NCBI GenBank assembly: GCA_963931185.1
Contig: OZ006981.1
Span: 295,910 to 359,909 of the forward strand
From: an uncultured Bacilli bacterium
GTDB lineage: Bacteria; Bacillota_I; Bacilli_A; RF39; UBA660
Direction of reading: 5' to 3'
DNA: 64,000 bases
The notes below the pieces were generated by a model. That model was not told where the DNA came from. It did not search any database and was given only the letters and a program-made list of their open reading frames with translations. The position numbers were made by a program, and so were the translations under genes. Shown in pieces: positions 10,667 to 38,007 of the stretch (positions are counted from its first letter, which is position 1; every line of letters begins with the position of its first letter).

Positions 10667-11539
10667 CTAAACTATTTCTTTTAATTTTGTATCAAAATCT
10701 TTATTTATTATCATTTTTATTTCTTCTTTATAAGGAGCTCTATCTTTTATCCAAGGTGTTTCAAGTATTTTAGGAATATTTTCTAATCGTTTATTATAAA
10801 CAATATTTATTAAAGTATTAAAGCCAATAGTTCCATATCCAAAATTTTCATGCCTATCTTTTTTAGCACCTTTAATATTTTTACTATCATTAATATGAAT
10901 ACAATGAACATATTGTAATCCAATTATTCTATCAAACTCATCCAAAATAGCATCAAAATTTTCAATATTATATCCACTATCATTTAAATGACAAGTATCT
11001 AAACAAACACCAATTTTACTTTTTTCTTCTACACCATCAATTATTCTTTTTAATTCAAGAAAATTAGAACCTATTTCAGTTCCTTTACCAGCCATCGTTT
11101 CAAGCAATATTACAACACTATCATTTTGCTTATTCACTTCATTCAAAGCCTTAATAATATTATTAATGCCTTTATCAACACCTAATCCAACATGACTACC
11201 TGGATGAAGAACTAAAAACTTAATTCCAATTACAGAACAGCGCTTAATCTCTTCAATCAAAAAATTAATTGAAAAGTTATATTTATCTTCTTCTTTATCA
11301 TTAGCAAGATTAATTATATATGGTGAATGAACAATTATATTATTCAATTCAATTTTATTTTCATTCATCAGCTTTTTTGCTTCATTAGTTTTTTCTAAAG
11401 AAATTTTAGTTCGAGAAGTATTTTGCGGAGCTCCAGTATAAAACATAAAAGTATTACTACCATAACTAAGAGCTTCTTTTACACTACCTAGTAGCTGTTC
11501 TTTTGAATTAAAACTAACATGACTACCTATTATTAACAT
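10667..11539 (-). CDS. nfo: Endonuclease IV (AP endonuclease family 2)
   Basis: LIIGSHVSF start and HxGxH / HLNDS metal-site motifs. Confidence 0.85.
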   Translation of the reverse strand: MLIIGSHVSFNSKEQLLGSVKEALSYGSNTFMFYTGAPQNTSRTKISLEKTNEAKKLMNENKIELNNIIVHSPYIINLANDKEEDKYNFSINFLIEEIKRCSVIGIKFLVLHPGSHVGLGVDKGINNIIKALNEVNKQNDSVVILLETMAGKGTEIGSNFLELKRIIDGVEEKSKIGVCLDTCHLNDSGYNIENFDAILDEFDRIIGLQYVHCIHINDSKNIKGAKKDRHENFGYGTIGFNTLINIVYNKRLENIPKILETPWIKDRAPYKEEIKMIINKDFDTKLKEIV

Positions 11540-16211: not shown

Positions 16212-16260
16212 TGGTGGGGCGTTAGGGATTCGAACCCTAGACCCACTGATTAAGAGTCAG
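16212..16260 (-). other. 3' half of the disrupted host tRNA-Lys(CUU) gene, including the 13-bp att core (16248-16260)
   Basis: Minus strand reads CTGACTCTTAATCAGTGGGTCTAGGGTTCGAATCCCTAACGCCCCACCA. This is a T-arm, acceptor 3' strand and CCA that pair perfectly with the 5' half at 26172-26198. Confidence 0.8.
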
Positions 16261-16404
16261 AGGGCTTACTTCCCTTTTTCTAAGGCTCCACCATATTGTC
16301 AAAAAACTTAAGCAACTTATTTTTCCCTTATTTTACGGGGCTTTGCTTGGTTTGTTGTATTTACTATAGCATTTTTTAGTTGGCTCTACAATAGCCTTTT
16401 TTTT

Positions 16405-16432
16405 GTTGTGGGTGCCGAAAAGGTGCCGAAAT
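16405..16432. promoter_or_regulatory. Candidate integrase arm-type sites, left end (GGTGCCGAA x2)
   Basis: GTGGGTGCCGAAAAGGTGCCGAAATG direct repeats between the att core and the int stop. The same 9-mer family recurs at the right end. Confidence 0.45.
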
Positions 16433-16446
16433 GTTAAAATCGTGTC

Positions 16447-17562
16447 TTAATTGATACTCAATGCACCATTTAACATGTTAGCAACCTCGGTTCTATTTGC
16501 TTGGAAAATGTGAGAGTAAATGCCTGTTGTTACTGCCATAGAAGAATGACCCATTCTTTCTTGTATCAATTTTGTGTGAACACCTAGTGCAATTTGTAAA
16601 CTTGCTGAACTATGTCTCAATGAGTGAAAGTTCATTTTTGGTAGTCCATATTTAACTGCTACTTTTTGAAATATTTTGCCACAAGTGGTTGGATACATAG
16701 GTTTCCCGTCTTTTGCTAGGAACAATTTATTGTTTGCTTTCCAATTATTTGATAAAGATAACTCCTCTTTGTAGGCTTTTAATATCTCAATAGTTGTATC
16801 GGTTAATACCATTTTTCTTGTTGATGTATCGTTCTTTGTTGCCTTTTCTACAATTTCGCCTTTAATAACATCTAGCGATTTATTGATAGTTAATACTTTG
16901 GTATCAAAATCAATATCGTTCCAAGTTAATGCCAAAATCTCACTTCTTCTTGCTCCCGAGTCTAGTGCTAGAACAATAAGTGCTTGATATTTTAGACACT
17001 CATTTTTTAACCCATTTAATAATGTATGTATTTGCTCTAGGTCGTAACACTCGGCAAGATGTTTTTCTTTTTTGGGTCTAGGTATATCAATATTAGGGTT
17101 AGTTTCAAGTAGTTTCCATTTAACGGCTTGTGTAAACATTAAATTGATTAAGTTGTAATAATGTAATAAAGTGTTATTTGTTACAACTTTTTTTCTTGTG
17201 CCATTTTTTAATTTTTTATATAGTTCCATTAAAGTAAAAGTTTCAATATCTTTTAGTTGCCAATTACCAATATAGCCATTGATTTTTTCTAACATTGACT
17301 TGTATCCGTCCAAAGTTTTTACACCGACATTTTCTTCACAATAGTTACGAATAAAGAAGTTCCCAAAATCTTCAAAGGTCATATTTTTGCTATCAACAAC
17401 AAAGCCACCTTTTGCATATTGTTGCTTGATTTCAAACTCTCTTGTTTCGGCTTGTTTTTTCGTTCCCTCAAAAATCTCCGTTTTTCTCTTTCTTTTTCCG
17501 TCTATATTGTAGCCAATTTCTGCTATTATTTTATATTTATTTTTTGATAGTTGTTTTATCAT
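16447..17562 (-). CDS. int: Site-specific tyrosine recombinase (phage/ICE-type integrase)
   Basis: N-terminal arm-binding-like domain (KNKYKIIAEIGYNIDGKRKRK). C-terminal catalytic HSLRHSSAS...HSSMAVTTGIYSHI (R, HxxR, Y). GGAGG RBS before MIKQLSK. Confidence 0.85.
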   Translation of the reverse strand: MIKQLSKNKYKIIAEIGYNIDGKRKRKTEIFEGTKKQAETREFEIKQQYAKGGFVVDSKNMTFEDFGNFFIRNYCEENVGVKTLDGYKSMLEKINGYIGNWQLKDIETFTLMELYKKLKNGTRKKVVTNNTLLHYYNLINLMFTQAVKWKLLETNPNIDIPRPKKEKHLAECYDLEQIHTLLNGLKNECLKYQALIVLALDSGARRSEILALTWNDIDFDTKVLTINKSLDVIKGEIVEKATKNDTSTRKMVLTDTTIEILKAYKEELSLSNNWKANNKLFLAKDGKPMYPTTCGKIFQKVAVKYGLPKMNFHSLRHSSASLQIALGVHTKLIQERMGHSSMAVTTGIYSHIFQANRTEVANMLNGALSIN

Positions 17563-17635
17563 TTTTCGTTCCTCCAATCATTTGATAAAACAATCTCTAT
17601 CTACTTATAATTATACCATATTTTCCTTGTTTTTC

Positions 17636-17833
17636 CTAGTAAAATAGAGATGTTTTGCTTTCTTTTTCTTGTAATTTTTCTACCCATGTATTGATACTTT
17701 TTAAATCAAACATAATACGATTTCCTATTCTAAAGTGTGGTATTTTTTTCTCTCTTACCAACTTTCTAATTTCCGATATAGATATTTTTAAATAGTTTGA
17801 TAAATCTTTTAAATTACATATTTCTTTTGTCAT
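17636..17833 (-). CDS. xis: Excisionase/Xis-family small HTH DNA-binding protein
   Basis: 65 aa; ISISEIRKLVREKKIPHFRIGNRIMF matches the excisionase-family HTH; GGAGG RBS; directly upstream of int. Confidence 0.7.
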   Translation of the reverse strand: MTKEICNLKDLSNYLKISISEIRKLVREKKIPHFRIGNRIMFDLKSINTWVEKLQEKESKTSLFY

Positions 17834-17939: not shown

Positions 17940-18230
17940 AAACTAAAAAAAGCCCGTAATATAAGGGCTAGAGAGATTTACTTGTCCGATTTTTCGAGTA
18001 ATAAGTTTTAATTTTGTTATGATATTTTTTGATAAGTTGTGATACTTTGTGATAGTTTATGATACTTTTTTCGCCCAACACCCTATATATATAAATAAGG
18101 AAAAAATACGGGGCTAGCAAAATCAAAAAAAATGAAAATATTTTATACTTATTTTTGACCTTTTAACTCGAAAAATCGGTATTAAAAAACAAGAAAAAGC
18201 CCGTAAGTAAAGGGTTTTCATACTTTCAAA
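17940..18230. promoter_or_regulatory. Highly structured ORF-free control region (hairpins, inverted repeats, iterons)
   Basis: AAGCCCGTAA(T/G)ATAAGGG hairpins at 17947-17972 and 18198-18222. Inverted repeat GTCCGATTTTTCGAGT (17984-17999) / ACTCGAAAAATCGG (18164-18177). GTGATACTTT-type iterons at 18019-18066. Confidence 0.5.
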
Positions 18231-24771: not shown

Positions 24772-24931
24772 TTAGATAATAGATAGATAAACACATAATC
24801 TTTGTTAGTTTGCCGTCTAATTAAAAGAAAAAACGGCTTTTCAATATAAGCCATTTTTGTTCAATTTTACGAATAATTATATGCCACCATTGACTTATGC
24901 CCTTTTTGGCACATATTTAGGAGGTTTGAAA

Positions 24932-25450
24932 ATGAAAAAACAAGCAATAGGTTTTATCGTTGACGAACACGGAGTTGTTAATAAAGAGATATACATAGGC
25001 GACCGAGTTCGTATTATACGAGAAAGCCAAAGACAACATTTACAAGATTTTAAAAAGACAAATAAAAGCAAAACATATTGTAAGGTATTTTGTAAGGCAA
25101 GCGATATATTGGCAAGTCTTAATTTAACAGCAAGTGAATATAAACTAATTTTTGCTATGCTCGGTCATATCGGTTTTGCCGAGTTTAGTGGCTACCTTAT
25201 AAAAGTTCAATGCAATATGTTTTGTGGTTACTTAAACGGCGAGGAATTAAAAAGTATTGCTAATATGCAAGATAGGACATTTTGGCGAGCCATTGATAGT
25301 TTAGTAAAAAAAGAGATTATCGCCATTGAGAAAGTTGGACGAGAAAATCATTTTTTGGTTAATCCGTTTATATTTATGAAAAATGACGAAATAACTCGTA
25401 CCTTATTCAATTTGTTTTGTGATACAAAGTTCAATTATTTAAACGAATAA
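24932..25450 (+). CDS. Putative winged-helix replication/regulatory protein (RepL-like?)
   Basis: AGGAGG RBS 7 nt before MKKQAIGF; 172 aa. Family assignment is uncertain. Confidence 0.4.
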   Translation: MKKQAIGFIVDEHGVVNKEIYIGDRVRIIRESQRQHLQDFKKTNKSKTYCKVFCKASDILASLNLTASEYKLIFAMLGHIGFAEFSGYLIKVQCNMFCGYLNGEELKSIANMQDRTFWRAIDSLVKKEIIAIEKVGRENHFLVNPFIFMKNDEITRTLFNLFCDTKFNYLNE

Positions 25451-25494: not shown

Positions 25495-25752
25495 TTACTT
25501 GTCTATCTCTTTTTTGCTACTTAAGTAACTACGAATTATTGCTACTTGCACGGGGTTTTGTTCTTGTATTTCTTTTGCGAACATATACTTTAATTTTTCA
25601 AAATGTTTTTCTAAAAGTTTTCTATCTTTTTTTGATAGTTCGCACTCGTCTAGTATTTGACGAGTTGTTGCCATTTCAAGAACAATGTTTTTAAACTCCT
25701 TTGTAATAGTAAATTGTAAGTCTTTTAAGTTTTCAATATCTTTTTCGTCCAT
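25495..25752 (-). CDS. Small hypothetical protein
   Basis: 85-aa charged helical protein. Confidence 0.4.
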   Translation of the reverse strand: MDEKDIENLKDLQFTITKEFKNIVLEMATTRQILDECELSKKDRKLLEKHFEKLKYMFAKEIQEQNPVQVAIIRSYLSSKKEIDK

Positions 25753-25837: not shown

Positions 25838-25872
25838 AAAAGGTGCCGAACGGGTGCCGTAAAAGGTGCCGT
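25838..25872. promoter_or_regulatory. Candidate integrase arm-type sites, right end (GGTGCCGAA/GGTGCCGTA/GGTGCCGTC)
   Basis: AAAAGGTGCCGAACGGGTGCCGTAAAAGGTGCCGTC: three copies of the 9-mer family seen at 16408-16432, about 290 bp from the right att core. Confidence 0.45.
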
Positions 25873-25877
25873 CTTAT

Positions 25878-25913
25878 GATAATTTGTGATACTTTATGAT
25901 ACTTTTGTAATTT
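25878..25913. repeat. TGATA(A/C)TTT iterons (x3)
   Basis: TTATGATAATTTGTGATACTTTATGATACTTTTG; the same iteron family as 18019-18066 and 18248-18258. Confidence 0.5.
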
Positions 25914-25995
25914 TCTAAAAAAGTCATTTTTCACTTAAAAATACATTTTTTTATATCAAAATTTGATACTATTTTTTCAAAATAATTTTAAAATC

Positions 25996-26052: not shown

Positions 26053-26128
26053 TGGTGGATTGTTAGGGATTCGAACCCTAGACCCATCGATTAAGAGTCG
26101 ATTGCTCTACCAACTGAGCTAACAATCC
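26053..26128 (-). tRNA. tRNA-Lys(CUU), element-borne intact copy
   Basis: GGATTGTTAGCTCAGTTGGTAGAGCAATCGACTCTTAATCGATGGGTCTAGGGTTCGAATCCCTAACAATCCACCA. Perfect acceptor stem GGATTGT/ACAATCC, anticodon loop CTCTTAA, CCA encoded. Confidence 0.85.
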
Positions 26129-26158
26129 ATTTTTAAGGCTCCTTAACTTGGAACAACC

Positions 26159-26198
26159 GATTAAGAGTCAGTTGCTCTACCAACTGAGCTAACGCCCC
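26159..26198 (-). other. 5' half of the disrupted host tRNA-Lys(CUU) gene, including the att core copy (26159-26171)
   Basis: Minus strand reads GGGGCGTTAGCTCAGTTGGTAGAGCAACTGACTCTTAATC, then diverges into non-tRNA sequence (GGTTGTTCC...). Confidence 0.8.
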
Positions 26199-26272
26199 AA
26201 AATAAGCTACTAATAAATTATAACATATTTTAAAAAAAAGAAAAGACTTTATTTAAAAAATAATATAAAATC

Positions 26273-36826: not shown

Positions 36827-38007
36827 TATTTCACCTTGATCCTCATCATTGAATTTTTTTCAATTGGAAAATCCACTATTAACTTAATTATTTGTTCTGG
36901 GTGCCTAGCTACTTCAATAGAATTCATATTTTCATCATAAACTTTATCTATTTTAAATGAATAAATGCTACCACTAGGAGTAAAAATTTCTACTTCATCA
37001 TTTTCTTTAAAGTAGTTTCTTTGGGTAAGAGTTACTATTTTAGTATTCTTATCATAATCTAAAATTAAGCCTAAATAGTCTTGATTAGAATTTTCTTGTC
37101 TGCCAGTATAATACTGATCAGTGTAGTCTGCTTTTTTCATATAATAATGGGAACTTGTTTCTCGATTAGCAACACGCGATAATATTTTTTCTTCCTTCTT
37201 TATTATATCTTTATTCAGTGTCCCATCATAATAGCTATCAATAAGTTTTCGATAAGAAGAAATAACAGTAGCCAAATAATAAGGTGAACGCATTCTCCCT
37301 TCAATTTTCAACGACTTAACTCCACTTGCAATTAACATATCTAAATATTCTGCCATATTTAAATCTTTAGTTGCCATAGTAAACTTTTCTTCATAATTAG
37401 CTATATCAAAGGCAAAGCGACATATTTGAGCACAGCCCCCACGATTAGAGTCTCTATTAGTAAAATAATTTGATAAACAACAGCGACCACTATAGAAAGT
37501 ACACATTGCACCATGAATAAATACTTCTAAATCAATATCAATTTTATCTAAAATTTCTTTAATCTCTTTAATAGATACCTCTCTTGCCAAAACAACTCTA
37601 TCAATTTTTTCTTTTTTCCAAAATTTAATTGCTTCTAAATTTGTTGTCGAACCTTGTGTACTTAAATGAACTTCAACATCAAAATTATCTTTTATATATT
37701 TTACTAAAAAAGGATCGCTAACAATAAAAGCATCAATTTTGGCATCTACAACTTTTTTTATAAAGTCATATACACCATATAAATCTTCGTTATGAAAAAC
37801 AATATTTAAAGTTAAATATACTTTCTTTCCCAAATTGTGAGCAAAAGTAGTAGCTTGTTTTATTTCATCTAAACTAAAATTATTAGCATTAGCCCTCAAA
37901 CTGTATTCTTGTCCACCAATATATACAGCATCGGCACCATACAATAAAGCTATTTTTAAGCGTTCCAAATCACCGGCTGGTGATAACAATTCCACCTTTT
38001 TAATCAT
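36826..38007 (-). CDS. Peptidase U32 family protein (TrhP/YrrO-like)
   Basis: VELLSPAGDLERLKIALLYGADAVYIGG N-terminus; sits in the mltG-yrrM-yrrN-yrrO gene order. Confidence 0.75.
   Translation of the reverse strand: MIKKVELLSPAGDLERLKIALLYGADAVYIGGQEYSLRANANNFSLDEIKQATTFAHNLGKKVYLTLNIVFHNEDLYGVYDFIKKVVDAKIDAFIVSDPFLVKYIKDNFDVEVHLSTQGSTTNLEAIKFWKKEKIDRVVLAREVSIKEIKEILDKIDIDLEVFIHGAMCTFYSGRCCLSNYFTNRDSNRGGCAQICRFAFDIANYEEKFTMATKDLNMAEYLDMLIASGVKSLKIEGRMRSPYYLATVISSYRKLIDSYYDGTLNKDIIKKEEKILSRVANRETSSHYYMKKADYTDQYYTGRQENSNQDYLGLILDYDKNTKIVTLTQRNYFKENDEVEIFTPSGSIYSFKIDKVYDENMNSIEVARHPEQIIKLIVDFPIEKNSMMRIKVK

Follow-up and report, generated by a model that had tools for sequence, protein, structure and literature searches.

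Phage lambda integrase acts on arm-type sites named P1, P2 and P'1-P'3, and the sites of its directionality factor Xis (X1, X1.5 and X2) are located on the P arm. The integrases of Tn916 and Tn1549 have the DR2 arm repeats, which are found near both transposon ends, and structures of the Tn1549 integrase exist as entries 6EMY and 6EN0. Among the integrases of mobile genetic elements, the IntTn916 group, a defined subgroup, has as its defining trait an arm-binding domain that recognises accessory arm sites (PMC8138268). In mycobacteriophages with tRNA-dependent lysogeny, putative arm-site pairs flank a short tRNA core (PMC10865867). The stretch of DNA analysed in this work, hereafter the window, is 64 kb long with a G+C content of about 25%, and contains an island with a tyrosine integrase gene and five copies of the word GGTGCCG(A/T). 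We consider it likely, judging from comparative sequence analysis, that the five copies are arm-type (accessory) binding sites of the heterobivalent tyrosine integrase (Int) of the island.

The island is 9,901 bp in length and is inserted in the anticodon loop of a tRNA-Lys(CTT) gene; the length follows from a junction analysis that placed the 13-bp cores and the host tRNA halves. The int-proximal att core (16248-16260, - strand) reads CTGACTCTTAATC in the tRNA sense, extends over the anticodon loop and three flanking stem pairs to either side, and is joined to the 3' half of the host tRNA-Lys(CTT). The int-distal core (26149-26161, - strand) is joined to the 5' half (26162-26199). When this 5' half and the displaced 3' half (16212-16247) were joined in silico, a perfect cloverleaf was obtained. 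On the - strand, ARAGORN called two tRNA-Lys(CTT) genes (16212-16289 and 26053-26128). The former was rejected as a normal gene: it is a hybrid across the junction, its acceptor stem has two mismatches and its D stem is almost absent. The distal junction by itself yields no tRNA. The latter of the two calls is an intact, island-borne tRNA-Lys(CTT); being situated 20 bp inward of the distal core, it belongs to the long P-type arm.

In the excised circle, as computed from these junctions, the two repeat clusters would flank the attP core in one orientation and about 440 bp apart, with two copies on the int-proximal (P'-like) arm at +150 bp and three on the int-distal (P-like) arm at -275 bp. The attP thus defined would be about 490 bp long, in contrast to about 240 bp in lambda, as the P-type arm accommodates an entire tRNA gene with its terminator. 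The excised attP junction, GCCCWYTGACTCTTAATCRGTTG, had no match in the IMG/VR and JGI metagenome contigs. The island shows the features of tRNA-dependent lysogeny, namely a 13-bp core, a host tRNA that is not reconstructed and an island tRNA of the same isotype. In this respect it resembles the phages Fionnbharth and LeBron, which share a common core of about 10-13 bp in a tRNA-Lys gene and likewise do not rebuild the host tRNA (PMC10865867). It differs from them in that its host is an uncultured low-GC gut Bacilli lineage known from a metagenome-assembled genome instead of an actinobacterium, in that it is a 9.9-kb island without recognisable virion genes, and in that its replacement tRNA forms part of the att arm itself, at 20 bp from the core. 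Such tRNA-replacing islands extend tRNA-dependent lysogeny beyond actinobacteriophages. Besides the window, an element-borne tRNA replacing the disrupted one was noted at eight related loci (L003, L004, L006, L012, L015, L037, L047 and L083). Sister lineages use other tRNAs, with anticodon loops that by eye are Arg-CCT-like and Ser-GCT-like, and the Clostridia lineages (L031-L044) follow the classical mode, in which the element contributes the 3' half of a CAT-anticodon tRNA. The other genes of the island encode a Cro/CI-like HTH protein, a GNAT acetyltransferase, and small membrane and zinc-ribbon proteins, and several ORFs have no family match. In contrast to Tn916 and Tn1549, no conjugation genes were seen in the island.

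All five copies of the word are on the + strand, in two tight clusters. The int-proximal pair consists of GGTGCCGAA at 16411-16419 and 16422-16430, with a period of 11 bp. When relatives are included, the conserved unit extends to 10 bp (GGTGCCGAAA, or TTTCGGCACC in the int sense), and the two copies then occupy 16411-16420 and 16422-16431. A distance of 150 bp separates the start of the pair from the left core, and 16 bp separate its end from the int stop codon (16447-16449). The distal trio comprises GGTGCCGAA at 25842-25850, GGTGCCGTA at 25853-25861 and GGTGCCGTC at 25865-25873, with periods of 11 and 12 bp, and ends 275 bp from the right core; the layout of these three copies is identical in L003. 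A first, sequence-only reading of this DNA had located two copies between the left core and the int stop and described all copies as having the same orientation, both of which are borne out. It had also placed three copies about 290 bp inside the right core, a distance that needs correction to the value above, and had written the consensus as GGTGCC(G/A)(A/T)N. The repeats are real, and the alternative (G/A) is superfluous, since every one of the five copies has G at position 7.

The word is unlike the core GATTAAGAGTCAG and occurs on both att arms in direct orientation, and hence, the island being integrated, is divided over attL and attR. Lambda likewise has, on both arms, a word with no relation to the core and with adjacent sites about one helical turn apart (11-12 bp here), and there too int is adjacent to one arm. 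In contrast to lambda, all five copies have one orientation, and no IHF-type sites were identified here; neither the word nor the integrase shows a sequence relationship to its lambda counterpart. Short direct repeats near both element ends are shared with Tn916 and Tn1549 as well, with a different word sequence. In the window, GGTGCCG has six exact matches against 0.25 expected, a number reached in none of 100 dinucleotide-preserving shuffles. The sixth match (37932-37938, - strand) is solitary, lies in coding-like sequence without integrase context and is taken as a chance match. Allowing up to one mismatch, no further copies were found in the regulatory regions of the island.

The integrase gene (16447-17577, - strand) encodes a protein of 376 aa with a Phage_integrase domain and a SAM-like core-binding domain. 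In a full-length profile search the nearest structure was 3NKH (1e-34), followed by the Tn1549 integrase (E about 1e-23), and on this sequence basis the catalytic and core-binding domains are closest to those of the IntTn916 group. Unlike Tn916, which inserts with low specificity and tolerates heteroduplexes, the island is site-specific for the anticodon loop of a tRNA, with an identical core of 13 bp. The core-binding domain (PF14659) begins at about residue 67, and an extra domain is located ahead of it. Residues 6-57 (17407-17562, - strand) form the candidate arm-binding domain, for which an AlphaFold model built from the family alignment (mean pLDDT 70) has antiparallel strands at residues 7-11, 14-23 and 29-37 and a helix at 40-56. 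This modelled three-strand-plus-helix fold may be of the Arm-DNA-bind_4/AP2-like type that is also found in Tn916 and Tn1549. Residues 14-57 match essentially the whole Pfam profile Arm-DNA-bind_4 with E=0.02, below the gathering score. The same profile is matched at E<=0.1 by 18 of 40 family members (best 1.4e-4), and in more distant homologues Arm-DNA-bind_4 is present in precomputed annotation. Neither Foldseek nor a sequence-profile search against the PDB returned a match for the N-domain. Taken together, the N-domain is predicted to be a divergent Arm-DNA-bind_4 domain, with the family match of the window's own Int being sub-threshold. The earlier statement that the N-terminus of Int has an arm-binding domain therefore holds as far as an extra domain with a modelled fold of this type is concerned, and its assignment to the family stays provisional.

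By analogy with lambda Int and Tn916 Int, we infer that the N-terminal domain of about 55 residues would bind the arm words, that the same protomers would contact the anticodon stem-loop core through their core-binding and catalytic domains, and that Int would thereby bridge the DNA arms into an intasome. The predicted N-terminal domain for accessory sites is what makes this integrase comparable to the heterobivalent integrase of lambda.

To compare the repeats among relatives, 46 Int homologues were aligned and 79 loci from species-representative genomes were collected, with 11 more obtained by exact-protein look-up. A pair was defined as an exact 6-mer with at least 4 G/C, repeated at 10-14 bp and situated no more than 200 bp after int. 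Such a GC-rich tandem pair was present at 31 of 49 Int-homologue loci (38-91% identity), as against 113 of 9,081 random windows drawn from the same loci (1.2%). By period the loci form two classes, one of 16 loci at 11 bp and one of 14 at 13 bp, and in most of the remaining loci a one-mismatch pair was visible. Within 330 bp after int, nearly all loci have a pair or triplet of GC-containing direct repeats before a tRNA-borne att; the few loci without a pair (L028, L036, L038, L039 and L051) also have no adjacent tRNA. Every lineage that was added later (L080, L083, L085, L087, L088 and L090) has the pair. The exact GGTGCCG follows the int stop directly in relatives down to about 41% Int identity, and down to about 38% the repeats keep their place behind the int stop as well as at the int-distal end. 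Among six integrases of 62-100% identity, TTTCGGCACC(T/A)TTTCGGCACC forms an invariant 21-bp footprint, with most of the flanking DNA diverged. The spacing of the pair was seen to split by lineage, being 13 bp in L007-L030, L037, L045 and L047 and 11 bp in the window, L001-L006 and L031-L044. The two spacing classes imply different relative geometries of adjacent N-domains.

At the int-distal end, the lineage's own word was found on the same strand in the 17 loci that hold both ends, which are the window, L003, L004, L006, L007, L012, L015, L031, L033, L035, L037, L041, L042, L043, L047, L080 and L083. The sequence-only reading had named, as its own counter-case, a random GC island that would not be conserved in related elements; the search among relatives found the repeats conserved, and the comparison across Int homologues supports the arm-site assignment. 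Short words do recur randomly, as the solitary copy at 37932 illustrates, and chance could in principle produce a GC island in AT-rich DNA. Since six matches arose in no shuffle, and since position, period and orientation are kept over dozens of loci, we give this explanation a negligible probability; the shuffles, the locus statistics and the invariant footprint effectively refute it.

The word itself varies among lineages. CGGCACC is used by the window, L001-L003, L006, L080, L083, L085 and L088, and L087 has the variant CGGCA(T/C)A. The word is GTGCCACC in L004, GGGCACA in L005 and GGGCAC in L090. Many Bacilli lineages have (T/C)GGCAC(C/T) with a 13-bp period, L021 has TGGCAAA and L037 has GGCTAC. 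Three Clostridia lineages have TCGTAGC, TCGCCAC and TCGTCAC, respectively. There are at least eight distinct arm words (CGGCACC, TGGCACC, GTGCCACC, GGGCACA, GGCTAC, TCGTAGC, TCGTCAC and TCGCCAC). The Clostridia words correspond one-to-one with the sequence of the two long N-domain strands, which exists in three versions: KITVAIGYNGNKRINHYETF goes with TCGTAGC, KIEVVIGYNGNKKIRHTEVF with TCGCCAC, and KID(V/I)P(L/I)GYNG(N/K)KRIRH(T/I)ETF with TCGTCAC. The L004 integrase is 76% identical to those of L080 and L083 outside the N-domain and 58-62% within it, and its word is GTGCCACC instead of CGGCACC. In contrast, the L006 integrase shows 69-71% identity outside the N-domain and 85% within it, and CGGCACC is kept. 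When L006 is added to the comparison with L080 and L083, the values for the L004 integrase are 71-76% outside and 56-62% within, and its N-domain has a 2-residue deletion in the turn between strands 1 and 2. From these identities, the L004 integrase looks like a natural N-domain replacement. N-domain identity is nevertheless a coarse predictor of the word, as L088 (60%) keeps CGGCACC and L087 (73%) has the variant CGGCA(T/C)A.

The other proteins of the island behave differently. A 197-aa ORF (ORF197, 24857-25450) has a weak match to Rep3_N (WH1) with E=0.026 and is syntenic yet highly divergent in relatives; it may be the replication initiator of the excised island. The GGTGCCG copies might accordingly be regarded as iterons of an origin served by this Rep3-like ORF, which sits beside the distal cluster in several Bacilli-lineage relatives too. 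Typical Rep3 iterons are about 20 bp long, far above the 7-10 bp units seen here. In addition, the second cluster lies beside int at the opposite end, the Clostridia lineages show the layout without ORF197, and the same word CGGCACC is used by L003, L080 and L083, with an ORF197 homologue of only 30-35% identity, and by L006, in which none is detectable. Because the word does not track ORF197, the iteron explanation was rejected and is in our opinion very improbable. The comparisons support a word that changes with the N-domain of Int and not with Xis, the Rep-like ORF or the Cro-like HTH protein; since all proteins of an element co-evolve, this co-variation is partly confounded by descent.

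The island also encodes a Xis-like HTH_17 protein of 65 aa (17636-17833, - strand), a candidate recombination directionality factor, and int is found together with an HTH_17 gene in nearly all relatives. Factors of the Xis type recognise direct repeats in tandem with a phase of about one helical turn, and the GGTGCCG copies could for these reasons be sites of this protein and not of Int. To our knowledge, the directionality-factor sites of the studied systems (lambda, L5 and P2) are confined to one arm, unlike GGTGCCG. Moreover, the identity of the word is independent of that of Xis: the Xis proteins of L013 and L011 are 75-78% identical to that of the window, whereas the word and the period differ, and the Xis of L006 is 69% identical with an identical word. 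A second set of repeats fits the factor better. Between the distal copies and the core, at 25874-25916 (+ strand), there are 10-bp-phased TTRTGATA(N)TT repeats that contain TATCA in the int sense. In relatives, this block consists of three or four (A/T)AAGTATCAYAA repeats phased at 10 bp. It belongs to a constant order, which runs inward from the core through the island tRNA (where present) and a terminator to the TATCA repeats and then the arm copies. The window has the arrangement 'TATCA + 3', and L004, L006, L015, L080 and L083 have '1 + TATCA + 2', with the extra arm copy on the core side. The TATCA repeats are limited to the distal arm and recur about 185 bp upstream of xis (18017-18069 in the window; likewise in L002, L003, L080 and L083). 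They are kept across lineages that differ in arm word and are more conserved than the arm word. Phased repeats on one arm, between the arm sites and the core, have the placement expected of directionality-factor sites, which TATCA fits and GGTGCCG, being on both arms, does not; the lambda Xis sites beside P2, on the int-distal arm only, are in a comparable position. Xis and TATCA are both generally far more conserved than the N-domain of Int, which makes TATCA the natural Xis-site candidate. Recognition of GGTGCCG by Xis was thus rejected in favour of the TATCA repeats, and we hold it to be improbable.

With GGTGCCG as candidate Int sites and TATCA as candidate Xis sites, the direction of recombination would be set by the subsets of arm sites in use together with Xis on the adjacent TATCA repeats. 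Binding of Xis there would bend the distal arm and favour excision. A second role of the TATCA repeats, at the xis/int promoter, is possible by analogy; sites of 186 Apl and P2 Cox combine directionality control with such a promoter role. TATCA/TTRTGATA repeats were noted in L002, L003, L015, L037, L080 and L083 besides the window.

Promoter-like sequences were noted beside both clusters. An outward promoter-like element on the - strand (16363-16391) has a -35 of TTGTAG at 16386-16391, a 17-bp spacer and an extended -10 TGCTATAGT at 16363-16371. It is situated 20 bp downstream of the proximal pair and faces the att core, and six diverged relatives show no change at its key bases. Transcription from this element in the excised circle would cross attP and enter the island tRNA gene. 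At the other end, a promoter-like site for an ORF of 85 aa (25495-25752) is found about 45 bp downstream of the distal trio. Because both clusters are upstream of same-direction promoter-like sequences, a regulatory role, alone or in addition to recombination, is possible. In its strict form, the GGTGCCG copies would be operator or activator sites of two same-direction promoters without any role in recombination. The placement upstream of the conserved -35/extended -10-like element and of the site of the 85-aa ORF speaks for this. However, the Clostridia relatives keep the two-arm layout without the 85-aa ORF, no DNA-binding protein of the island except Int tracks the word, and the repeats are direct, palindromes being usual for HTH repressors. 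We therefore regard a purely regulatory function as unlikely. A dual role, in which binding of Int also affects the promoters, is possible and is compatible with the arm-site explanation. As the arm copies are just upstream of conserved same-direction promoters, Int could be a switch for the island tRNA and its neighbours. More speculatively, the arm words, the small, discrete changes in the two long N-domain strands and the shift between 11-bp and 13-bp spacing in this Int family of gut Bacilli and Clostridia might together represent a natural series of a recognition code, with Int occupancy acting also as a transcriptional switch, a combined proposal that we put forward only tentatively. If both parts were true, arm specificity would be predictable and could be re-engineered, and arm sites would have a second, regulatory function.

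Arm-type sites are a textbook feature, and identifying them here is routine annotation that fixes the attP of an uncharacterised island together with its likely Int and Xis sites; what is added is the comparative breadth and the clean separation of Int-type from Xis-type repeats. Dozens of related integrases, with readable arm words that change with few N-domain residues, constitute a data set that could guide the prediction or reprogramming of specificity in heterobivalent integrases. Meanwhile, the arm words could help the automated delimitation of small islands in metagenome-assembled genomes.

Two minor observations were made in the same regions. In L009, the tRNA of the int-proximal att is followed directly, at 11330-11420, by a second TATCA set with arm words (TTTGGCACTTACTTCGGCACTC), which resembles the distal arm of another related element integrated in tandem. 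In addition, a small palindrome, CCC(C/T)T(A/T)nAAGGG, is located at 16325-16340 of the window (here ccct tattttac gggg), some 65 bp away from the proximal core. It is conserved in most Bacilli-lineage loci and might serve as a bending site, as a site for a host factor or as a short hairpin.
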